Assembly: GCA_947480015.1 (NCBI GenBank)
Contig: CANKBS010000009.1
Span: 3,255-67,254 of the forward strand
DNA length: 64,000 bases
From: Sphingobacteriaceae bacterium
GTDB lineage: Bacteria; Bacteroidota; Bacteroidia; B-17B0; Aurantibacillaceae
Reading direction: 5' to 3'
Part shown: piece by piece, positions 31,464 through 44,441 of the stretch
Numbering within the stretch: the stretch's first letter is position 1
Layout: the number at the start of each line of letters is the position of its first letter
The notes under the pieces: model-generated
Seen by the model: only the letters and a program-made list of their open reading frames with translations
Databases searched by the model: none
Told to the model about the DNA's origin: nothing
Translations under genes and position numbers: made by a program

Positions 31464-32882
31464 TTAAGCCAAAGCGTTATTAACAGTGAGTTTCACCATC
31501 CTTTCAGAGTAAATATTTTTTGGCGAATTTTCTGTTTTCGCCAAATTTTCTTCATTTTTTTCTTCAAATTCATCAAAATTTACTTGTCTAAAAACACGTT
31601 TTTCAGGGTCTGCATCAAACTTATCTAACTTGGCAATGTACTTAAATGTCGTGGTCAATTCTGTGTGTAAACATTGGGCAGATATTTCCTGTATGTCCCA
31701 TCTTTCAACTTTATACAAATAAAGTGCTCCAGTAGCTTTTAAGCAATAAAAATTATGTAGAGTAGTAAATTCCTTACTGTAGCCCAGTTCGTTTCTTAAA
31801 ATATCGTTCCAGAGGTTAGAAGCCCACATGCGGTTCCTAAGATGTTCCCCCTTCCTTTGACGAAATGCTTTAGAACTTTTGTTTGGTCTTGGTCTAAAAG
31901 TTGGAGGGAACAATAGTTTCTCGGGTTGCATTGGGTCATAGTTATTGGTTGATATTAAATATTCAATCACATGATTAGGAATGCTAATAGTACCCGACTG
32001 ACCATTTTTAACAATGCTGGAGTATACTTCGATATTGTAGTTCTTTGCGTTCTTTTTTACATTAATACACTTTAATTTTAAAATCGTGTCGCCACGCAGG
32101 AGACCATAATACATTAACATCGCAAATCCGAAGAGCTCCTTGTACTTTCGTTTTGTCTTTTGCTTCAAGTGATGCATAATTTTCTTGTAATCTTGATTTG
32201 CCAAAGGCATGTTTTTATTTTTGTCATTGCTTTTAACCCTAGAAGCTTTGGTTACCGGATTAACGGGCAACAATTGACTATAGGCATTGAAAAAAGCATG
32301 TATCTTTGACCGATAGGTTTTTCGGGTATTGTCTGACCAATCCTTTCGATATTTTGCCCAGTTTGCAAATACTTCATTACAAATGCCCTCTGTCATATCT
32401 TTTATAGTCAATTCCTTTAGCCCTGCTTTACCATATTCATCTTGCAAAGAATCTTTAAAAGCATCCAAGGCATTGAAATATAGGTCTTGGTTGGAGATAC
32501 TTTCGTTTGTCTGATAACGCATCTGCACATATTCATCAATCAGGTTTGTGATTGGGATGAATTCCGCTGAGCGTCTACGTTTTAATACTGCTTTCCAGTT
32601 TTTCTCATTAATTCCCTTGTCATACTGACCTGAGACAATATCTTCTGCGACTTTAGGTAAAATATTGTTATCTACATATTCTGTCATTGCTTTTTTACTG
32701 CCTTGACAATGTTCTCTGAGTTGCTCAAAGCCGTGAAATTGACAATAAGTACCAATGTTTCTTATTTTACCTACAAACATTGACCCTTTGATATGGTCAA
32801 ATGCACCATAGTAAATGTAACAATGGTATGCTTTTCGTGAAAATTTAAAAGTTGGTTGTTTGAATGTTTTAATATTTTTCAT
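31464..32882 (-). CDS. int: Tyrosine recombinase / integrase (divergent)
   Basis: YYGLLRGD (Arg), VKNGQ (Lys), YCLKATG at the HxxR position, QCLHTELTTTFKY (His and nucleophile Tyr); adjacent to attL. Confidence 0.85.
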   Translation of the reverse strand: MKNIKTFKQPTFKFSRKAYHCYIYYGAFDHIKGSMFVGKIRNIGTYCQFHGFEQLREHCQGSKKAMTEYVDNNILPKVAEDIVSGQYDKGINEKNWKAVLKRRRSAEFIPITNLIDEYVQMRYQTNESISNQDLYFNALDAFKDSLQDEYGKAGLKELTIKDMTEGICNEVFANWAKYRKDWSDNTRKTYRSKIHAFFNAYSQLLPVNPVTKASRVKSNDKNKNMPLANQDYKKIMHHLKQKTKRKYKELFGFAMLMYYGLLRGDTILKLKCINVKKNAKNYNIEVYSSIVKNGQSGTISIPNHVIEYLISTNNYDPMQPEKLLFPPTFRPRPNKSSKAFRQRKGEHLRNRMWASNLWNDILRNELGYSKEFTTLHNFYCLKATGALYLYKVERWDIQEISAQCLHTELTTTFKYIAKLDKFDADPEKRVFRQVNFDEFEEKNEENLAKTENSPKNIYSERMVKLTVNNALA

Positions 32883-34666: not shown

Positions 34667-35377
34667 TTAAGAGCCATAGGAGATTCTTGAAATTAAATCT
34701 CTTAATTCTTCATCTATATTATGTCTCTCAATAAGCTTGTAAGGAGTTCTAAATTCACTTCCGTCCTTACTCAAATTTAAACCTCTTATCTTTTCGTTAA
34801 GAACTTTTACATAGACCTTCTCTGAAAATTTGCGAATTAATTGTTTCTCCTTGTTTCTGAGTAATTCTAATACCCAAGAAGCAATTACTCCCTTATGCTT
34901 ACCAATATAAACGTTACCGGCACTGACTGAAGGTTTTCTAAGTTTCCGTAACACATCCAAACACTTTTCAGCAAGTTCCGGTGAATCAAAAAGTTCATCG
35001 AAAGATATTGGTTTACTTAATTCAGAAAACTCGTTTTGAATTTTAATTAATTCTATAGTTGGGTCTAAATCAAAATTAAACCCCTTTTCGTGTAATTTCT
35101 CAAAATACTTACCGAATGCCTTAAGCTCATTTTTATTGTCTTTATTAATTGAAATTGTGTTTACTGTTAATGCATATTGAATACCCCAATCACTACCGAA
35201 AGTTTTTCTAAGTAATATGATAGTTTCTTTATCGTAAGCAAACTCTGCTTCAAGCGAATAAACAAGCCCATCATGTAAATGCACGTTTTTCGCTTTTACC
35301 CAGTTACGAGTTTCTGTAATTGTCTTGAACCCAAGCCAATTCCTTAAATATTCTATTGTCCACCAATCAATTCTCAT
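34667..35377 (-). CDS. Hypothetical protein, possible N-terminal HTH/excisionase-like segment
   Basis: 236-aa ORF; WTIEYLRNWLGFKTITETRNWV resembles a short DNA-binding HTH (inference). Confidence 0.55.
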   Translation of the reverse strand: MRIDWWTIEYLRNWLGFKTITETRNWVKAKNVHLHDGLVYSLEAEFAYDKETIILLRKTFGSDWGIQYALTVNTISINKDNKNELKAFGKYFEKLHEKGFNFDLDPTIELIKIQNEFSELSKPISFDELFDSPELAEKCLDVLRKLRKPSVSAGNVYIGKHKGVIASWVLELLRNKEKQLIRKFSEKVYVKVLNEKIRGLNLSKDGSEFRTPYKLIERHNIDEELRDLISRISYGS

Positions 35378-35496
35378 AGCTCTATCGTTTTTTCTATTAA
35401 TACTTTTCTTTCTAAACCGAGTGGGCGAATAGTGATTACTTTACCTATTAGCTCCTCAAGCATTTTATTTGCTACTATTTTTCGTTGTTTCGCCAT
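35374..35496 (-). CDS. Small 40-aa ORF (MAKQRKIVANKMLEELIGKV...), absent from the ORF track
   Basis: ATG at 35496 after an A-rich leader; TGA overlaps the next ATG (ATGA coupling). Confidence 0.5.
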   Translation of the reverse strand: MAKQRKIVANKMLEELIGKVITIRPLGLERKVLIEKTIEL

Positions 35497-35579
35497 TTTA
35501 TATTTGTTTTTAATGTTTTAACGGATTCGATTATAATTTGGTTACAGAATTTTCAAACTTTATTTTTTTTTATTTTGGG

Positions 35580-35611
35580 CGATTGGCAGAAGCCTAGTCC
35601 GACTATTCGTA
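35580..35611 (+). repeat. Copy 1 of 32-bp motif CG(A/C)TTGGCAGAANNCTNNTCNGN6CGTA
   Basis: Identical spacing in four copies (35580, 37348, 38672, 41511). Confidence 0.8.
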
Positions 35612-35912
35612 ATGGTTGATTAAGCATTTTTATAGACTAAACAATTCTAAAAAATAATGTTGTCAAGTATTACAGATAATTATCTACGCAAGATATTTTG
35701 ACAGAAGAATTTTTTTCCTTTATACTGCTCTTGTATAAGAATGTATTGGGATTCGCAGTTCCTGTAAAATTATTTTTACAAAACCTTGACATTTTAAATA
35801 TTACCCTTTATTTATGTAGGACTAGGTCAAGTAGTTTTAAACAGAATTTTTAATCCTGATGCTGAGTAGGTGCTTGACCCACTGAAAGGCAATCAGGATT
35901 TTTATTTTAATC

Positions 35913-37076
35913 ATGTGTTATGAAATAAATCTTTATGAATCAGTAAAAAAACCAAAAGTAAAATCCACAATTACAACAGATGCTCTTTTTGAAATTATCC
36001 GCAGTGGCGGTAGTAATTTAGAATTAATAAATAAAGCTCGCAATCTGGGAAAACAGCACGTTGAATATCAAGATATAAAAACTAATCTTCCAGCCGTCAC
36101 GTGGAGTTTCCTGTTTGAAGGTTACAAAAAAGACAAGAACATTATAAACAGCACCGGGCTAATTTATTATGATATAGATGTGGCACTGACAATGAACTTG
36201 AATACAGATTACATTTTTGCAAAATACCAATCACTTTCAAATGTTGGCTCCACAATAATCGTGAAGGTTTCCGGAGTAACAATAAATAACTTCAGTGCAA
36301 CCTATTGTGCTATTGCTAATAAATTGGGAATAATTGACCTTATAGATAGCAATGCTTCGAAGAGAACCCAATTTAATGTGATTTCTTATGACCCAAATAT
36401 TTTTACAAATAATGAGTCATTTTGCTTCAGTGCAGAAACAATGCCTGAATTTGAAGAGCCTAAATTAAATACAGCCAATGAAAATCAGAAAAATGTAAAA
36501 TGGAGGTACGACAATTATGCCGATTATTGCAAAGAAAATGACACCCAAGAATATGAGTTTGGAGTGCCTGTTGTTAGCCTCTATTTACCCTCAACCATTA
36601 AAAATGGAAAAAGAAAACATACTCTTTTATCTTATTGCAACAATCTCGTTCTGCTAAATCCAATGCGTTCCTTTGGTGAGGTCTACACTCACTTATTAGA
36701 ACGAAATTCAGAGAAATGTACAGAGCCATTAGACTCAAATGAAATCAAAGACATAGTAACTTCCATTTTCAAATACAAAAATGAAAACAAATTAAAATTT
36801 AAATATACACGTACGAAGAAAATATTTTATGGAAGAAAAAGTGGACTAACAGTTAAAGAAAGACAAAGGGAAGCCAGAAAAACTGTTGGCTGTTGGCAGA
36901 GAAACAAAACAAAAACTAAAATTTACAATGCAATAGAAAGATGGGATTCAAATAAGAAAATAACAATTAAAGAAGTTAGTCATCTAATAGGTATGTCAGT
37001 CAGAACGGTAAAGACATATTGGATTGAGTTCAAAGAGTTTGTTAAGGAAGAAAATGAGAATAAAAAGTGCAGTTAA
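35913..37076 (+). CDS. Replication/primase-like protein: BT4734/VirE-N-like domain + PriCT-like domain + C-terminal HTH
   Basis: LPAVTW...STGLIYYDID, KYQSLSNVG; GKRKHTL...PLDSNEIKDIVTSIFKY; ITIKEVSHLIGMSVRTVKTYW. Confidence 0.7.
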   Translation: MCYEINLYESVKKPKVKSTITTDALFEIIRSGGSNLELINKARNLGKQHVEYQDIKTNLPAVTWSFLFEGYKKDKNIINSTGLIYYDIDVALTMNLNTDYIFAKYQSLSNVGSTIIVKVSGVTINNFSATYCAIANKLGIIDLIDSNASKRTQFNVISYDPNIFTNNESFCFSAETMPEFEEPKLNTANENQKNVKWRYDNYADYCKENDTQEYEFGVPVVSLYLPSTIKNGKRKHTLLSYCNNLVLLNPMRSFGEVYTHLLERNSEKCTEPLDSNEIKDIVTSIFKYKNENKLKFKYTRTKKIFYGRKSGLTVKERQREARKTVGCWQRNKTKTKIYNAIERWDSNKKITIKEVSHLIGMSVRTVKTYWIEFKEFVKEENENKKCS

Positions 37077-37347
37077 CTGTTATGTATTTATTAAATAGGA
37101 AACATATAACACTTGATTGCACCTTTTTTAAATGCTAATAAAAACAAGTACTTATAAATTGCTTCATTTTTTTTGTGGAATTTTTTTTGGGAAACCAAAT
37201 CAATTGGTTGAATTAAAATATTTCAAAATTAGGTTTCGATTGTATATAGGTCTGTTCAAACTTTTGGAGCCATTAGTTTTTAGAGCTAAAATTAGATACG
37301 AGAATAGCCCCCCTATTTAGGCTCCAAATTAAGGGACTTACGTTCTT

Positions 37348-37379
37348 CGATTGGCAGAATTCTGTTCTGACAAGCCGTA
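37348..37379 (+). repeat. Copy 2 of 32-bp motif
   Basis: CGATTGGCAGAATTCTGTTCTGACAAGCCGTA. Confidence 0.8.
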
Positions 37380-37449
37380 TATAACCCAATTAAAAAAACA
37401 CAGTTAATCCAGAGCTCCCGGAGATGGAGCTGGTTTGAAAAACGGCTCG

Positions 37450-37944
37450 TTAACTTTTCATCAAATCATCTATCTTTCTTCTCTCATCCTCATTAAAAAT
37501 ATTAAACTCAATATGTCGACCTGTCTTAGAAGCGATAATCACTTGTGAAGTTTTTTTGCCGAACATTTTTAATAGAAGTCTATCTGTTATAGTAGACCCG
37601 AATAAAGCATCCCAAAAGGAAAAGAAAATAATGTATCCACCAAACCCCGCAATGCCTGCGAAAACAATAGAGGTGTAGGTAAAGAATCTTCCAATATCTC
37701 CTGTCAGTCCATTTATCGCATAGCCGATGCCGCTCCACCCAAAATAAAGTGCTAAACCGATGGCTCCAAACCTGAATGCATAATTCCAATCCGAATATTT
37801 GAGAACCCTTGCATCAACAATATTAATTCCCGCAAAATCACTTTTTTCTATAACAGTTAAAGTAAATGGTTTCAAGCACTTGTATATATATTGCGAATCC
37901 TCTATAATCAATTCACCAGAAAGAAATTGAATTTTTTCTTCCAT
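37450..37944 (-). CDS. Hypothetical membrane protein (two TM helices)
   Basis: Hydrophobic Gly-rich segments AFRFGAIGLALYFGWSGIG and IVFAGIAGFGGYIIFFSFW. Confidence 0.7.
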   Translation of the reverse strand: MEEKIQFLSGELIIEDSQYIYKCLKPFTLTVIEKSDFAGINIVDARVLKYSDWNYAFRFGAIGLALYFGWSGIGYAINGLTGDIGRFFTYTSIVFAGIAGFGGYIIFFSFWDALFGSTITDRLLLKMFGKKTSQVIIASKTGRHIEFNIFNEDERRKIDDLMKS

Positions 37945-37947
37945 AAA

Positions 37948-38325
37948 TTATTCTTTGATTGAATGGTAAACACTACCCCAACCACTCAAATAGAGCTTTT
38001 TTCCCATCGTTGACAATTCTGTTTTTTTTCCGTTATGCAAATCTATTTCCCATGCATCATGTTTTTTATTGAACTCACCAACCGACCATGTTCCATTATC
38101 TTCTCCATATGTCGGTTGACCCGATAAATTGGTGGATGTCCGCCAAGTTCCATCGTTAACGAATATGGTTGTTTGTTCTCCTCCCATATTATCTGTTCCA
38201 TTAAAACAGCATCCAACCAATTTAGTTGAAACTTCTTCTTTTGACCATTTCGATTGTGGACTGCCACAAGAGATGATGAAAAGTGTAACCACAGTTAAAA
38301 GCGAGATTATTTTAGTTGTTTTCAT
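37948..38325 (-). CDS. Hypothetical lipoprotein
   Basis: MKTTK signal, lipobox IISC. Confidence 0.72.
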   Translation of the reverse strand: MKTTKIISLLTVVTLFIISCGSPQSKWSKEEVSTKLVGCCFNGTDNMGGEQTTIFVNDGTWRTSTNLSGQPTYGEDNGTWSVGEFNKKHDAWEIDLHNGKKTELSTMGKKLYLSGWGSVYHSIKE

Positions 38326-38364
38326 AATTAATATTTTTATGGCTAATGTAGAATAAAATTGTGT

Positions 38365-38384
38365 TTACGGCAAATTTGTCGTAA
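38365..38384. promoter_or_regulatory. Palindromic operator candidate for the adjacent XRE regulator
   Basis: TTACGGCAAA/TTTGTCGTAA, 20 bp with one mismatch, between divergent starts. Confidence 0.6.
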
Positions 38385-38396
38385 GGAAATTTACCA

Positions 38397-38633
38397 GTGT
38401 TCGCCACTTTTAAGGTGGTGAAGTACTACAAATCTGAAATAGCCAAACTTGGTAAAAAAATCAAGAAAATGAGGGAGTCCAAAGGGATGACCCAAGAAAA
38501 CTTATCCGATTTATGTCAAGTGGATATTAGAACAATTCAAAGATTAGAAAAGGGTGAATTTGGCTCTGGTTTACACCTAATTTACGCGTTGGCAGATGCC
38601 TTTGAAATATCGGTTCCCGAACTTTTGACATAA
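38397..38633 (+). CDS. XRE-family HTH transcriptional regulator
   Basis: IKKMRESKGMTQENLSDLCQVDIRTIQRLEKG; true start may be a few codons downstream. Confidence 0.9.
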   Translation: MFATFKVVKYYKSEIAKLGKKIKKMRESKGMTQENLSDLCQVDIRTIQRLEKGEFGSGLHLIYALADAFEISVPELLT

Positions 38634-38671
38634 TATTTAGCCTGTAGATAAGGTATACAACTAAGTCTTAA

Positions 38672-38703
38672 CGATTGGCAGAAATCTGTTCAGTAAAATC
38701 GTA
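38672..38703 (+). repeat. Copy 3 of 32-bp motif
   Basis: CGATTGGCAGAAATCTGTTCAGTAAAATCGTA. Confidence 0.8.
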
Positions 38704-38851
38704 TAAGTTTAAATAAAAAATTTTGATGCCCACCTGTGAATTCTGGAGCCGGAGCTAAAACTGAAACTGATTAAAATAATCTTGCTTTATTTGAAAACTA
38801 ATGGCAATTTAGCTTATGAAATAAAACTTGAAAAAAAACTTCACTTAAGTA

Positions 38852-39970
38852 TTGAAATTAATCTATAAAACTCAAATTATGTCATTAACAAAAGTTCATC
38901 TCAAAGTAACAGAAATACTTCTAGACCCAAACAATCCAAGATTTGCAGATGTTTCAGATGATAGTCTAAATGTTCCAGAAGGTAGATTTATTGACAAAGA
39001 AGTTCAAGATGATGCATTTAAAAAAATGATGCATCCCAAATTTGACGTAATCACTCTGGCAAAGTCAATAGAGACAGTTGGTTTTATACCGGTTGACAAT
39101 ATTGTTGTGAAATTAGTTGAAGGAACAAATTCATACGTTGTTGTTGAAGGGAACAGGAGAGTTACGGCACTACAATACTTGATAAGAGAATATAAAAAAG
39201 GTCAATCAATACTCACTAAGGAAGCTGTTGATTTAATCGCTGAGATAGATGTTTTACAGGTTAACGATACTTTGGCAAATTCAGAATACTTTGGAATGGT
39301 TATTCAAGGTATCAGAAATGTCTCGGGCATAAAAGAATGGGATGCTTTCCAGAAGGCGCAATTCATTAATAATATGATTGAAAAAGGCAAAGACCCTCAT
39401 ACGATTTCAAAAATGCTTGGAATGCAGGTAAAAGAGGTAAATCGATATTATAAAACTTATTGTGTGATGAATCAATTCAAACAAGATGAGGAGTATGGGT
39501 CATATTTTAAAAACTCCTTCTTTAGTCATTTTGATGAAATTCTCAAAAAGCCTGTATTAAGAACCTTCTTCGGTTGGAATGATGATAGCTATAAATTTGA
39601 AAATCTCACAAATATTCGCAGGTTCTATGAATGGATGCTTCCAGATGAAGAAGGAAATGTTACTTTTTCAGATGCAAGAGACGTAAGATTGCTTTCGGAC
39701 TTTACATCCGAACAAACTGCATTAAATTATTTGGATGACAAGAATTTTCAAAAGGCAGTGAATTACATTGAAAATAAAAATTTTAATAAAGTTGTTTCAT
39801 TTGATGAATGTATGTCTAAAATAAGACTCGCAATTGAAGCATTTAAAAATATATTGGGCGAAGGTTACGAGAATTTGTTGACAGATGACGATGTTATCTA
39901 TCTTGAAAATTCAATTTCTGAAATGAATGGGAAGCTTGCGAAAATCAAGAAATTGAAAGTAAGTGAATAA
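38852..39970 (+). CDS. ParB/Srx-like N-terminal domain protein
   Basis: LLDPNNPRF, YVVVEGNRRVTAL (GxxR ParB motif), WDAFQKA; likely start ATG 38879. Confidence 0.78.
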   Translation: MKLIYKTQIMSLTKVHLKVTEILLDPNNPRFADVSDDSLNVPEGRFIDKEVQDDAFKKMMHPKFDVITLAKSIETVGFIPVDNIVVKLVEGTNSYVVVEGNRRVTALQYLIREYKKGQSILTKEAVDLIAEIDVLQVNDTLANSEYFGMVIQGIRNVSGIKEWDAFQKAQFINNMIEKGKDPHTISKMLGMQVKEVNRYYKTYCVMNQFKQDEEYGSYFKNSFFSHFDEILKKPVLRTFFGWNDDSYKFENLTNIRRFYEWMLPDEEGNVTFSDARDVRLLSDFTSEQTALNYLDDKNFQKAVNYIENKNFNKVVSFDECMSKIRLAIEAFKNILGEGYENLLTDDDVIYLENSISEMNGKLAKIKKLKVSE

Positions 39971-40697
39971 GGAGCTTTTATTTCAATCAGTAAAATCATT
40001 TAATGTAGAAAAAGTCGAAACAACTACTTTTTTAATTCAGTATTTTACATTAATTGGTCTTAATCGTTTTAAGGCTTCTGAAGAAGCAGAAAAGAGAATA
40101 AATACATTTATCGATTTTATCAATAACGAACTTATCCGTTGCTCTAAAGTTGGAGAAGTTTGTATTTTTCAAACATCATCCAATAAAAATGTAACAAACT
40201 TCAATTTAAATTTCTTTTATGTTCAAGAACTTTGCAAAGAACTATATTCAGGAATTGATACTGTAGAATTTGAAGTCGCTTGTTCTAAAGTCCTAAAAAA
40301 CAACTTGAAAATTGAAAATGCTAATGTAACAAAAGCTAAAGGAGATGGTGGTTATGATTTCTATGGAAGCTATTTAGCGAAAGGAGGTAGTGATAATTAC
40401 ACTCATTCCGTAATTGAAATTTTCGGTCAATCGAAACAATATGCTGGAAATATTTCCAGACCTGAAATAGAAAAATTTTTAGGCTTTATTCAAAAAAACA
40501 ATCAAAATCGGCACTACAAACCTACTATATATATTTTTGCGTCGACTTCGGATTACTCTAATGAAGCATTACAGCTAGCAAATTCTTTTGGTATTATATG
40601 TTGGACAGGAATGCAGATAGCTTCCTTTATTTTTAATTCTTTATCATTGAGAATAGAAAATCCAAAAGAAGCGTTATTAAATTATATAAAAAAATAG
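39963..40697 (+). CDS. Mrr-like restriction endonuclease
   Basis: VTKAKGDGGYD...GQSKQY (D...QxK), FASTSDYSNEA, GIICWTG. Confidence 0.8.
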   Translation: MNKELLFQSVKSFNVEKVETTTFLIQYFTLIGLNRFKASEEAEKRINTFIDFINNELIRCSKVGEVCIFQTSSNKNVTNFNLNFFYVQELCKELYSGIDTVEFEVACSKVLKNNLKIENANVTKAKGDGGYDFYGSYLAKGGSDNYTHSVIEIFGQSKQYAGNISRPEIEKFLGFIQKNNQNRHYKPTIYIFASTSDYSNEALQLANSFGIICWTGMQIASFIFNSLSLRIENPKEALLNYIKK

Positions 40698-40737
40698 ACT
40701 TAAAATCGAAACAAAATTTTAGTCAAATAAAAACTCT

Positions 40738-41487
40738 ATGACAGAAGCACAGAAATCACAAGCAATGTCAATTATTTCACTTGGGACAACCAAAATTGTG
40801 AACAATTATAGCGAGAATGCCTTACTACTAAATTCGTGTTTTGTCGCTAAAAATAGATACGAAACATTGACTGAGACTAATGGTTTATCTACAATTAGAA
40901 ATATACCAACTAACCTCCGACTTGAAAATGAAATTGACGTGCAGTATTCTAATTCGGAACTTGTTGAAAATTATAGAAATGAACTTCCTAATATAATTTT
41001 CAAAAATTATATTATTGTTTCAGTTTCAAATGTTGACGCAACCTTGGAAGACTTATATGAACATCTTTTAAAAATTTATGAAGCAAACATTAATGAAAAT
41101 GAAGTTGAAAGGCGAATAAGAAATGCTTGGACAAATGATGGGATGCTATCTTACCTAATTGACCCACTTAAAAGTAATTTACAAAAACCAAACGGATTAG
41201 AAACAAGTTTTACTGAAGCACTGATGCGTTATTCGGAACTACGAATACTTCGTCACACTCTATTACATACTAATGGAAAACTGTCTGAAAAAAACAAGCA
41301 AAAACTTGAAAACTATTTAAATTCAACACCAGATGAGAGAAAAAATCTTGCGTTAATTAACAGCCCTTTATTCAATCAAGATTGGCAGATTACACTCAAT
41401 ATAAATCAAATCTTAGCAATTAGAAGGTATCTTTATGATTATCTGATGTATTTATTTCACTCTATAAATGAAAGAACTGTTATTTAA
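40738..41487 (+). CDS. Putative HEPN-domain protein
   Basis: Helical protein with ELRILRHTLLHTNG (R-x4-H) and N-terminal IIVSVSNVDATLED. Confidence 0.6.
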   Translation: MTEAQKSQAMSIISLGTTKIVNNYSENALLLNSCFVAKNRYETLTETNGLSTIRNIPTNLRLENEIDVQYSNSELVENYRNELPNIIFKNYIIVSVSNVDATLEDLYEHLLKIYEANINENEVERRIRNAWTNDGMLSYLIDPLKSNLQKPNGLETSFTEALMRYSELRILRHTLLHTNGKLSEKNKQKLENYLNSTPDERKNLALINSPLFNQDWQITLNINQILAIRRYLYDYLMYLFHSINERTVI

Positions 41488-41510
41488 AACTTTGCTTTAA
41501 TTCAATTAAT

Positions 41511-41542
41511 CGCTTGGCAGAATCCTAATCCGATTTTCCGTA
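41511..41542 (+). repeat. Copy 4 of 32-bp motif
   Basis: CGCTTGGCAGAATCCTAATCCGATTTTCCGTA. Confidence 0.8.
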
Positions 41543-41655
41543 TATCCATAAATCTCAATAAACCGGACTCAACCTGTAATCCCAGCCGGCGTTTTTCCCG
41601 GTGGAGCTAGAATCTTCATTGTAACAAAGCTCAAAGTATTTTCGTATAATACACT

Positions 41656-42132
41656 ATGGCAAGAAAATTTCACTTGCATCTAACTAACAAACTGACAAAT
41701 CACTTCATAGCTCGCTATTTCCATGGCAACCTCCAAGGAATGGCAATTATAGTGCTAACAAAGTCGAATATTGAGCAAATAAGGAGTGTTAAGAAACTAA
41801 TTGAGATAGCTAAAACACTTGAACCTTCAATTCAATCCATGAAAAGTGTTCTTCAAAACGAAAAGAAAATCTTCCCCTACCCGATTAATACAGACCCTAA
41901 AGAAATTATTGATTCAAAAGTGTTTTGTAAAGAATTCAGAACAAACAAAGCAGTGTGGAAATTGGAACCGTTCCAATGGCTAGATACTGAAAACCAATTT
42001 ATAATCGAAGAAATTTTTCTGATTTGCGAAAAAGACACATTTAATTTCGAGATTTACTTTTATCCTGAAAATGGAATCACCGAAACAAAAATGCTAGTCG
42101 AGAGAATTCCTTATTATCAAATCGGATTATGA
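41656..42132 (+). CDS. Hypothetical protein
   Basis: 158-aa ORF, start uncertain. Confidence 0.55.
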   Translation: MARKFHLHLTNKLTNHFIARYFHGNLQGMAIIVLTKSNIEQIRSVKKLIEIAKTLEPSIQSMKSVLQNEKKIFPYPINTDPKEIIDSKVFCKEFRTNKAVWKLEPFQWLDTENQFIIEEIFLICEKDTFNFEIYFYPENGITETKMLVERIPYYQIGL

Positions 42133-42247
42133 CTGTGCGAAAAAGGTCTAAAAAACAAGGTGTGTTTTTACCAGTAAAATCAAGCTTTCTTAATTTTATT
42201 TTCAGTGTTCTAAAAACGAGTGTTAATCTAACAGCAAAACTACAATT

Positions 42248-42823
42248 ATGAAAACAGCTATTTATGTCCGATGTTCAACTAAGACTAAAGGTCAAGACGT
42301 CGAGAACCAATTAATTCAGCTTCGTACATTTTGTAAGAGGAGCAACTACGAAATCACAAAAGTATATGAGGACTATGAAAGTGGCAATGACCTAAATCGA
42401 AAAGGTTTTAATGAAATGCTTAATGATGCCCGGAAAAGAAAATTTGAACTTCTTGTATTTTGGTCGCTAGACCGATTCTCCCGCTCTGGAACAAGACAGA
42501 CCATCCACTACCTTCAACAACTGGAGAGTTATAATGTTGTCTACAAAAGTTTCACTGAACAATATATTGACAGTGCCGGAATCTTTAGTGATGTTATCAT
42601 CAGCATTTTAAGTACCCTCGCGAAACAAGAAAAGGTCAGGCTAAGCGAGCGAGTAAAAGCTGGTTTGGATAAGGCAAGAACAAAAGGGAGAGTTGGAGGG
42701 AGACCGAAATTAAATCAAGATGTTATTGAGAAAATTAAAGAAATGAAGAGCCAAGGCTACTCAAATCGGCATATTGGACGTGAACTAAAGATTGGGAATT
42801 CAACAGTGGGACAATATTTATAA
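42248..42823 (+). CDS. Small serine recombinase (resolvase/invertase) with C-terminal HTH
   Basis: YVRCST (catalytic Ser), NQLIQL, SLDRFSR, RVKAGL...GRVGGRP, HTH tail. Confidence 0.93.
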   Translation: MKTAIYVRCSTKTKGQDVENQLIQLRTFCKRSNYEITKVYEDYESGNDLNRKGFNEMLNDARKRKFELLVFWSLDRFSRSGTRQTIHYLQQLESYNVVYKSFTEQYIDSAGIFSDVIISILSTLAKQEKVRLSERVKAGLDKARTKGRVGGRPKLNQDVIEKIKEMKSQGYSNRHIGRELKIGNSTVGQYL

Positions 42824-43252
42824 TTCGTTAAGATATGATAGTCATTCTAAAAACATTTAGGTTTAGAAAAACCCAAATAGGCGGTTTACAGCCAATGTAC
42901 ACAGTTGAAGGGTTAGTATTGACTGCTTTATTGTATTTTCCTTATGATAAACTGAACTAATTTTTTACTTGTTTAAAACAACCTATACACATTAATTCAA
43001 CACGACCCAAATTTTTAACTATTGTTAAAAATACATTATGTCTACTTTTCTCCTAGCTAAAAAGTTGGGTTGAATATACTTCACACTTTATCTTTGCGTT
43101 AACAAAAAAAATAATTTTCAATAAAATATTTTTTTGACTTTTTTGTAAATAATAACAGAAGTAATGGCGGTTGCTTTAATAAAAAACAAATTTAAACCTG
43201 TTGCCCTGATTAGCCCGCCAGCGAAAAGGGACACAGGTTTTTTTATTTAAAA

Positions 43253-43874: not shown

Positions 43875-44441
43875 TCAGACCCGCAATCTTGAAAATTGAA
43901 CTCGTTTCCTAAGCTGATTCTTAATCCTATTCAGCTTTGAATTCAATGCAGAAACACTTGTATTTAATTCATGAGCCAATTTTTTTTGACTGAACTGTTC
44001 AAAATAGTAAAGGTTTATTAAGTTCTTGTCTTTGGGGTTTAATTCACTAATAATCGCCTCTAAATATTTAGACTGTTCTTCTTTGATTAATGATGTTTCG
44101 AGGTCTTCTACATCGTTACATTTAATATTTAAATTGTATGGCTCTTCACGGGAGACAACTAAGCTCTTGTTCTTTTTAAATCTATACAAATCAATTAATG
44201 CGTTACGAGTTATTCTTTCCACCCAAGGCTTCAGGTGATAGTCTGGTTTAAAAGTGTAGAGCTTGTCAAATACTTTTACAGTTAAATCATGAGCCAATTC
44301 AATTGACTCTGCATCATAAATTGAACAATAATAAAGTTGATTTTTTATTATACCTCGAATTAGTTTATATAGTTGCTCAGAGGCTCTGTTATTTCCGTTC
44401 AAAGCCAATTCAATAACTTCCATTTCGTTTTTTATCTTCAT
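43875..44441 (-). CDS. ECF-type RNA polymerase sigma factor
   Basis: Region 2 (DLTVKVF...WVERITRNALIDLYR) and region 4 (LINLYYFEQFSQKKLAHELNTSVSALNSKLNR). Confidence 0.85.
   Translation of the reverse strand: MKIKNEMEVIELALNGNNRASEQLYKLIRGIIKNQLYYCSIYDAESIELAHDLTVKVFDKLYTFKPDYHLKPWVERITRNALIDLYRFKKNKSLVVSREEPYNLNIKCNDVEDLETSLIKEEQSKYLEAIISELNPKDKNLINLYYFEQFSQKKLAHELNTSVSALNSKLNRIKNQLRKRVQFSRLRV

Follow-up and report, generated by a model that had tools for sequence, protein, structure and literature searches.

A candidate ParB-Mrr defense pair and an adjoining HEPN-like gene in an integrated element of a Sphingobacteriaceae bacterium

We describe a block of 3 genes, here called g1, g2, and g3, in DNA of a Sphingobacteriaceae bacterium (GenBank assembly GCA_947480015.1, contig CANKBS010000009.1). 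The block occupies positions 38852-41487 of the window, that is, of the whole 64,000-nucleotide (nt) stretch that was analyzed; all coordinates are those of the window unless a locus is named. g1 encodes a ParB-type protein, g2 a predicted Mrr-type nuclease, and g3 an all-helical protein that is probably a HEPN-type RNase. An initial annotation of this DNA had read the 3 genes as a single candidate defense operon in which a ParB subunit controls both a DNase and an RNase. On balance, we consider it probable that the block consists of 2 separate modules placed side by side by a mobile island: a ParB-Mrr pair and a stand-alone HEPN-like gene. This reading rests on how the genes are built, on their domains and folds, on residue conservation, and on synteny; from these we infer that nucleotide is bound, that a complex forms, that the nuclease and the RNase are active, and that the genes have a role in defense.

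Three genes at the locus

All 3 open reading frames (ORFs) lie on the plus strand, and their order and spacing are as initially annotated, with a single correction at the start of g1. The ORF listing gives this gene as 38852-39970 from a TTG codon. Its homologs, which fall into more than 250 protein clusters of 362-368 amino acids (aa), share the position of an ATG codon at 38879 (MSLTKVH...); because they begin at this codon, we take the gene as 38879-39970. The product is a 363-aa protein of the ParB/Noc/KorB type, with an N-terminal ParB/Srx domain, a helix-turn-helix (HTH) domain at residues ~161-189, and a C-terminal helical domain. g2 (39963-40697, GTG start) overlaps g1 by 8 base pairs (bp), and the same or a similar overlap is seen again in relatives. 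It encodes 244 aa: a variable N-terminal part of ~95 aa, followed by a C-terminal Mrr_cat nuclease domain of the PD-(D/E)xK fold. g3 (40738-41487) encodes a 249-aa, all-helical protein with the motif R172-H-x3-H177. An A/T-rich spacer of 40 bp separates it from the stop codon of g2, and no terminator-like hairpin was found there. Because the spacer is this short and has no terminator, g3 is probably cotranscribed with g1 and g2 in this genome.

ParB-type clamps switch on CTP: ParB serves in the segregation of chromosomes and plasmids, Noc in nucleoid occlusion, and KorB in long-range repression. By its predicted structure, g1 has the fold of this classical CTP-switch type. An AlphaFold (AF2) model was built on 31 homologs (predicted local distance difference test, pLDDT, 85.2) and compared with the PDB by Foldseek. 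The top 25 matches are all Noc, ParB, KorB, or Spo0J structures (probability 1.00, E 2e-5 to 5e-3, 220-280 columns), and the alignments take in the nucleotide-binding domain at the N terminus as well as the HTH domain. Noc, ParB, and KorB clamps among them align over 250-280 columns with E 2e-5 to 4e-4. Residues E90-G-N-R-R94..A97 are invariant in the 31 homologs; among them, G91-N-R-R94-V-T-A97 forms the Box II pattern GxRRxxA, and GNRR aligns in register with AGERRWRA of Noc and with CGFRRVAA of the ParB-like protein 6ryk. In PADLOC, g1 matches PDC-M38A (3e-46, model positions 8-334 of 715) and 19 PD-Lambda-5_A models (best 3e-18, N-terminal ~160 positions). On these 3 lines of evidence, the earlier description of g1 as a ParB-like protein with an EGNRR box (residues 90-94) stands.

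The description of g2 as an Mrr-like nuclease gene likewise holds. The protein matches Pfam Mrr_cat (PF04471) with 39.9 bits against a cut-off of 21 (E 5e-10). Across 56 homologs, conservation is 100% for E104, Q156, and K158 and 96% for D132; by sequence, these residues, with Q156-S-K158 as the QxK element, make up a complete PD-(D/E)xK signature in the D...QxK form of Mrr enzymes, and nuclease activity is predicted. The first 95 residues are unconserved among the same 56 homologs, and Pfam gives no match to the Mrr_N winged-helix domain. Relatives of g2 match the PADLOC models mREase_IV and PDC-S02. A weak match to Pfam HEPN (PF05168) at residues 137-208 of g2 (E 0.009) overlaps Mrr_cat and was judged spurious.

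The ParB-Mrr pair across genomes

Gene neighborhoods were compared at 66 loci of the g1 family from reference genomes, 7 loci of the rare close g2 homologs, and 21 loci of g3 homologs. At nearly every ParB locus, a co-oriented gene of ~240-260 aa lies directly downstream, overlapping the ParB gene or no more than 17 bp away. At 58 of 61 loci, a hidden Markov model (HMM) of the g2 homologs matches the gene directly 3' of the ParB gene, with most gaps between -71 and +17 bp. The hosts of the pair are Bacteroidota, Alpha-, Beta-, and Gammaproteobacteria, Acidobacteriota, Nitrospirota, Chloroflexota, Bacillota, Omnitrophota, and one archaeon of the Methanomassiliicoccaceae.

The company that the pair keeps elsewhere is typical of defense islands: prokaryotic Argonaute (pAgo), MmeI-like restriction-modification (R-M), Abi_2, PIN, the Wadjet component JetA, DpnII R-M, and ResIII or type III-like helicases. 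Such company is guilt by association and not proof. Together with the adjacency of the 2 genes, it bears out the part of the initial annotation that treated g1 and g2 as coupled genes in a defense context. Our literature search returned no description of a 2-gene defense system of a classical ParB and an Mrr nuclease. Judged from sequence and synteny, g1-g2 is a conserved, widespread, and uncharacterized 2-gene candidate defense module; the combination of a ParB-superfamily sensor with a nuclease is already a known kind.

No further partner recurs. Clustering of 234 genes around the pairs gave a largest cluster of 4 (pAgo and radical S-adenosylmethionine, SAM, genes) and no conserved third gene. 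DNA methyltransferase domains occur in only ~7 of 118 immediate neighbors of ~60 pairs, and some of these are parts of ordinary R-M systems, DpnII among them. On these counts, both a conserved third gene and a methyltransferase were rejected as the partner of the pair.

The 2 largest clusters are observations in their own right. A pAgo-like (Piwi-domain) protein of ~690 aa is encoded directly upstream of the pair in 4 Bacteroidota loci (L001, 1764-3836; L016, 3894-5978; L017, 3889-5979; L024, 2812-4884), and in 2 of these a DUF559-like gene of 368 aa lies between. A radical-SAM gene is found 1-2 genes downstream of the pair in 4 distant loci, one of them archaeal (L034, 8190-9137; L066, 8675-9514; L067, 8336-9178; L073, 8348-9328); it may denote a subtype in which the partner modifies DNA.

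The HEPN-like gene and the island around the block

The family of g3 is small: it comprises 32 clusters at 90% identity, and a set of 1.84 billion proteins yields 69 representatives at 50% identity. Searches of Pfam, NCBIfam, PADLOC, and PDB sequences with g3 gave no match; UniRef names one homolog "RiboL-PSP-HEPN domain-containing protein." The case for a HEPN protein begins with the sequence RHTLLH at residues 172-177. R172 and H177, along with R169 and D100, are invariant in 40 relatives down to ~20% identity; all 22 close relatives also keep H173. HEPN domains have been defined by an Rx4-6H motif with a polar residue after the arginine, the motif closing the third helix, an insert between helices 2 and 3, and E-x3-K in helix 2 (Anantharaman et al. 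2013, PMC3710099). In g3, the motif has this form, with H173 as the polar residue. The AF2 model (pLDDT 90.4; predicted template modeling score, pTM, 0.84) has helices at 3-43, 72-114, 158-177, and 222-244 and an insert at 120-157, a layout whose secondary structure fits the same definition: the motif ends the third core helix (158-177), and the second helix (72-114) carries conserved D100, E104, and E108-x3-K112.

Profile comparisons point in the same direction. Among the 40 remote relatives, the 2 commonest weak Pfam matches are both to HEPN families: HEPN_RiboL-PSP in 3 members (best 0.009, below threshold) and HEPN_Cthe2314 in 2. For comparison by hhalign, we gathered 24 bona fide RiboL-PSP-HEPN (PF18735) proteins from the phylum's genomes; aligned to them, the g3 family profile places RHxxxH on RNxIAH with a score of 25.8 and P=0.008, at a probability of only 5%, whereas 4 negative controls gave P=0.19-0.52. 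The g3 family aligned against a single RiboL-PSP protein gave nothing. From sequence and model together, we consider it quite likely that g3 is a HEPN member.

Comparison of loci separates g3 from the pair. A g3 homolog occurs in none of the 66 ParB loci or the 7 Mrr loci, and homologs of g1 and g2 occur in none of the 21 g3 loci. Relatives of g3 usually have an upstream spacer of their own, of 75-570 bp, and their neighbors vary by locus: DUF5677, GYF_2, DUF2971, DUF4238, PIN, patatin, Fic, RhuM, AAA_21, TIR-SEFIR, and one unrelated Mrr_cat gene. Because co-occurrence is zero in all 3 sets of loci, we take g1 and g2 as the conserved unit and g3 as independent. The trio, proposed initially as one candidate operon, is not syntenic elsewhere, an outcome that the initial annotation itself had named as refuting it. 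This makes joint control of a DNase and an RNase by the ParB protein unlikely; the closest pairs, moreover, are followed by other third genes. g3 is instead a separate, independent candidate gene of the abortive-infection (Abi) kind, from a family that current Pfam and PADLOC models miss.

At one g3 locus, on a metagenomic Bacteroidota contig (L009, 4757-8925), a DUF5677 gene and the g3 homolog are followed by an unannotated 372-aa gene and a true RiboL-PSP-HEPN gene (249 aa), so that 2 HEPN-type modules adjoin. A recurrent Mrr partner for g3 was also considered and rejected: 307-aa genes lie upstream at 3 loci, these are unrelated to each other and to g2, and only the one in Flavihumibacter carries Mrr_cat.

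Several observations weigh against the reading of the block as a ParB-Mrr pair beside an independent HEPN-like gene, and they touch all 3 of its parts. For g1, the Pfam ParB_N domain (PF02195) scores 13.3 bits, below the cut-off of 26.3; many homologs carry a precomputed match to this family. The glutamate of the ParB GERR box is catalytic and needed for CTP hydrolysis. Its position is taken in g1 by N92, which is invariant in the family, and nucleoside triphosphate (NTP) hydrolysis may therefore be absent; the substitution suggests nucleotide binding with little, slow, or no hydrolysis. For the pair, the lack of a methyltransferase beside most copies is a contrary point, since self and non-self DNA would have to be told apart by other means.

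For g3, Foldseek searches of the model against the PDB and BFVD found no HEPN structure; the best PDB match has E 0.36, and the one probable BFVD match is an unannotated phage protein. g3 and its 21 close relatives also have no Pfam HEPN match, RiboL-PSP-HEPN (PF18735) included. The HEPN-like label of the initial annotation therefore stands in part, for the RHTLLH motif, its place on the helix, and the weak profile signals, and falls short for the fold as checked by Foldseek and for Pfam. These negatives, with the low hhalign probability and the lack of a PDB sequence match, are what one would see if g3 were an unrelated helical protein, such as a regulator, an adaptor, or an anti-defense factor, whose R-x4-H arose by convergence or chance. 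We hold this to be somewhat unlikely: 4 residues stay invariant across remote relatives, the motif, insert, and E-x3-K fall where the 2013 definition places them, the recurrent weak Pfam matches are both to HEPN families, the motif aligns in register at a P value well apart from those of the controls, and UniRef gives a homolog the RiboL-PSP-HEPN name.

For the independence of g3, the linkage in this genome is itself a contrary point: same strand, a 40-bp gap, no terminator, and a place within the same motif-bounded block. In Flavihumibacter petaseus (L008/L082, 5081-6750), a g3 homolog overlaps a 307-aa Mrr_cat gene, unrelated to g2, by 4 bp; it is the only other g3-family gene coupled to a restriction-fold nuclease. 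Furthermore, the g1-g2 pairs most like that of the window (82-92% identical) are each followed by a different third gene, either a 438-aa protein without matches or proteins of 172 and 116 aa, tightly appended with gaps of +5 and -4 bp. A variable third slot may thus cooperate with the pair. Taken furthest, this would make the block a true 3-component system in this lineage, in which a ParB sensor controls an Mrr DNase and a HEPN RNase, restriction with an abortive-infection backup, as an unfused analog of the ParB/HEPN protein of PD-lambda-5. The 8-bp overlap of the co-oriented g1 and g2 would fit, as would the recurrence of links between the ParB superfamily and HEPN, in PD-lambda-5, in an "operon with ParB" entry of the 2013 survey (its Table 1), and in the DUF262-type genes that precede RiboL-PSP-HEPN genes (see below). 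We nevertheless regard such a system as unlikely, given the zero co-occurrence of g3 at the ParB, Mrr, and g3 loci and the separate spacers and unrelated neighbors of its relatives; the ParB partner of true RiboL-PSP-HEPN genes, too, is of the DUF262 clade and not of the g1 clade.

The block is cargo of an integrated element. A tyrosine integrase gene lies at 31464-32882, a DUF5131 gene and a VirE/PriCT-type primase-like gene at 35913-37076, and an XRE HTH gene at 38397-38633. Beyond the block follow an ORF on the plus strand for 158 aa without a family match (41656-42132), a small serine recombinase of the resolvase/invertase type (42248-42823, 191 aa; Resolvase 1e-30 and HTH_7), a sigma factor of the extracytoplasmic function (ECF) type on the minus strand (43875-44441, Sigma70_r2 and r4_2), and a type I R-M system from 45019. 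In 75 other species of the genus, g3 and close relatives of g1 are absent, and only very distant ParB-like genes occur; by this distribution, g1 and g3 are accessory cargo in the genus.

The block lies, as initially reported, between copies 3 and 4 of a 32-nt motif, CG(A/C)TTGGCAGAA-N16-CGTA (also written CGATTGGCAGAA-N16-CGTA, or with a trailing (TA)). The window has 4 direct copies, all on the plus strand (35580-35611, 37348-37379, 38672-38703, and 41511-41542), where shuffled sequence leads one to expect 0, and exact matches in the whole 3.77-Mb genome are limited to these 4. Copy 3, the upstream boundary of the block, lies 176 nt upstream of the g1 start and is a possible ECF-type promoter. 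Copy 4, the downstream boundary, follows the g3 stop by 24 nt and precedes the next plus-strand ORF (41656) by 114 nt. Copies 1, 3, and 4 are each 114-333 nt upstream of plus-strand genes. We take the motif to resemble promoters of ECF sigma factors, with a 16-nt spacer between a -35 element and a -10 "CGT"; judged from sequence, the copies may serve as promoters of the cargo units and not as recombination sites. The sigma factor gene of the island has no copy upstream. The motif is absent from 133 related loci, and in 75 genomes of the same genus it gave single mismatched matches only, near control level and with no cluster. An Rfam scan of 35000-43000 returned nothing relevant. A match to CRISPR-DR47 at 39921-39959, within the 3' end of g1, stays below threshold (28.4 bits, gathering score 39, E 0.057); it is a single copy without an array and most likely due to chance.

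The mobile setting also raises the question of whether g1-g2 serves immunity at all. The pair could be a selfish module for maintenance or addiction, with an Mrr-type toxin restrained by a KorB-like ParB protein that acts as repressor or antitoxin, or a remnant of a partition system. The structural matches of g1 include the KorB transcriptional repressor clamp among the best, genes for an integrase, a primase-like protein, and a serine recombinase share the integrated element with the pair, and the distribution of the pair is patchy and horizontally transferred. Against this, no ParA gene was found near the block and no repeated parS-like array was seen, the neighbors of the pair are overwhelmingly defense genes, 2 defense-derived sets of PADLOC models capture the g1 family, and the catalytic residues of the nuclease are strictly conserved. 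We judge a non-immune role to be very unlikely.

Related systems and a proposed mode of action

The closest known systems are PD-lambda-5, the closest that has been validated, and the PADLOC candidate PDC-M38. PD-lambda-5 is an anti-phage system that combines a ParB-type domain with nucleic-acid-targeting functions and was called a compacted R-M and Abi system by its authors (Vassallo et al. 2022, PMC9519451). It shares with g1 an N-terminal ParB/Srx-type domain, the part (~6-162) over which g1 matches the PD-Lambda-5_A models. The differences are several. PD-lambda-5 needs a methyltransferase; its A protein has 430-590 aa, of which g1 corresponds to the N-terminal third only; and the effector of the block is a separate Mrr-type DNase, while the HEPN-like protein has a gene of its own, g3, without conserved linkage to the pair. 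The block contains neither a match to the B component nor a methyltransferase. PDC-M38 (PADLOC-DB v2.0.0) is unvalidated, and the literature that we searched makes no mention of it. g1 matches its A component strongly, and an Aeromonas relative reaches 2e-49 (profile positions 8-334/356); the A model runs to 715 positions, however, and g1 covers the first half only. Among 9 neighboring proteins, g2 and g3 included, no other PDC-M38 component was matched.

With the ParB, Noc, and KorB clamps, g1 shares the fold, the order of domains (nucleotide-binding domain, then HTH), and Box II GxRR in register. It differs from them in the lack of a ParA partner, in GNRR for GERR (like the GFRR of 6ryk, it lacks the catalytic glutamate), in another C-terminal helical domain, in its nuclease partner, and in its occurrence in defense islands. 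Effector-ParAB immune systems, described in a 2026 preprint, differ in turn: they keep ParA and fuse their effectors to it, whereas the block has no ParA.

A ParB-superfamily module for NTP binding and DNA sensing joined to a nuclease effector is also found in DUF262-type proteins (GmrSD, BrxU, SspE, and NsnA of Menshen; PMC12065111) and in operons of DUF262 and RiboL-PSP-HEPN genes (PMC3710099). The latter resemble the pair in layout as well, with a gene of ~370 aa followed by an overlapping effector gene for ~160-250 aa. In contrast to g1, DUF262 belongs to another ParB clade, with DGxQR; hhalign to g1 aligns the core motif only, at 1% probability, and the effectors are HNH or HEPN and not Mrr_cat. 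The 2013 survey of HEPN domains lists "Ribo L-PSP-HEPN ... operon with ParB" (PMC3710099). In the Bacteroidota loci that we gathered (L110-L133), an overlapping DUF262-type (DGxQR) gene of ~365-408 aa stands before ~21 of the 24 bona fide PF18735 genes (for example, L110, 338-1459 and 1456-2121). DUF262 with HEPN thus appears as a 2-gene module of its own, with a layout analogous to GmrSD and a predicted RNase as effector.

The other 2 proteins have relatives of their own kind. g2 has the Mrr_cat domain and D...QxK of Mrr and type IV enzymes, and its relatives match mREase_IV; unlike these enzymes, it has no Mrr_N, its N-terminal 95 aa are unconserved, and it is obligately paired with a ParB-like gene. 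g3 resembles AbiD/AbiF (Abi_2) and RiboL-PSP-HEPN proteins in size, in its all-helical fold, in the invariant R-x4-H with a polar residue, in its solo occurrence in defense islands, and in weak profile similarity in register; single-gene AbiD/AbiF relatives of RiboL-PSP-HEPN are mentioned in the 2013 survey (PMC3710099). Unlike them, g3 falls below every Pfam HEPN threshold, has no fold match, and belongs to a small, distinct family.

In the mechanism that we propose for the pair, g1 would bind DNA through its HTH domain, and its GNRR pocket would take CTP or another NTP, upon which the protein would close or spread on the target. It would then recruit or license g2 to cut invading DNA; g2, without a DNA-binding domain of its own, would be the effector. 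Translational coupling would yield g1 and g2 in a fixed ratio. Self-protection would come from what the ParB or the Mrr part recognizes, whether modified DNA, as in type IV Mrr enzymes, or a foreign sequence or structure. Because most copies have no methyltransferase, discrimination based on modification or on a foreign feature is more likely than classical R-M. g3 would act alone as an Abi-type HEPN RNase, cotranscribed with the pair only through the tight packing of cargo in the island.

A bolder claim, which we advance tentatively and hold to be doubtful, is that g1-g2 represents an undescribed class of restriction-like immunity. In such a class, a nucleotide-gated ParB clamp, and not a methyltransferase-guided or helicase-driven subunit, would find foreign DNA and license an Mrr-type nuclease, mostly without a cognate methyltransferase. 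In its most extended form, the variable appended gene, here g3, would be a swappable second effector under the same ParB.

As a lesson on annotation, the apparent 3-gene system is a juxtaposition, which advises caution in reading operons inside defense islands. The pair itself is compact, with 2 genes in 1.8 kb, and could reveal a new way to discriminate self from foreign DNA without a methyltransferase. If our reading is true, ParB-Mrr pairs would extend the principle of the nucleotide-gated clamp to immunity.

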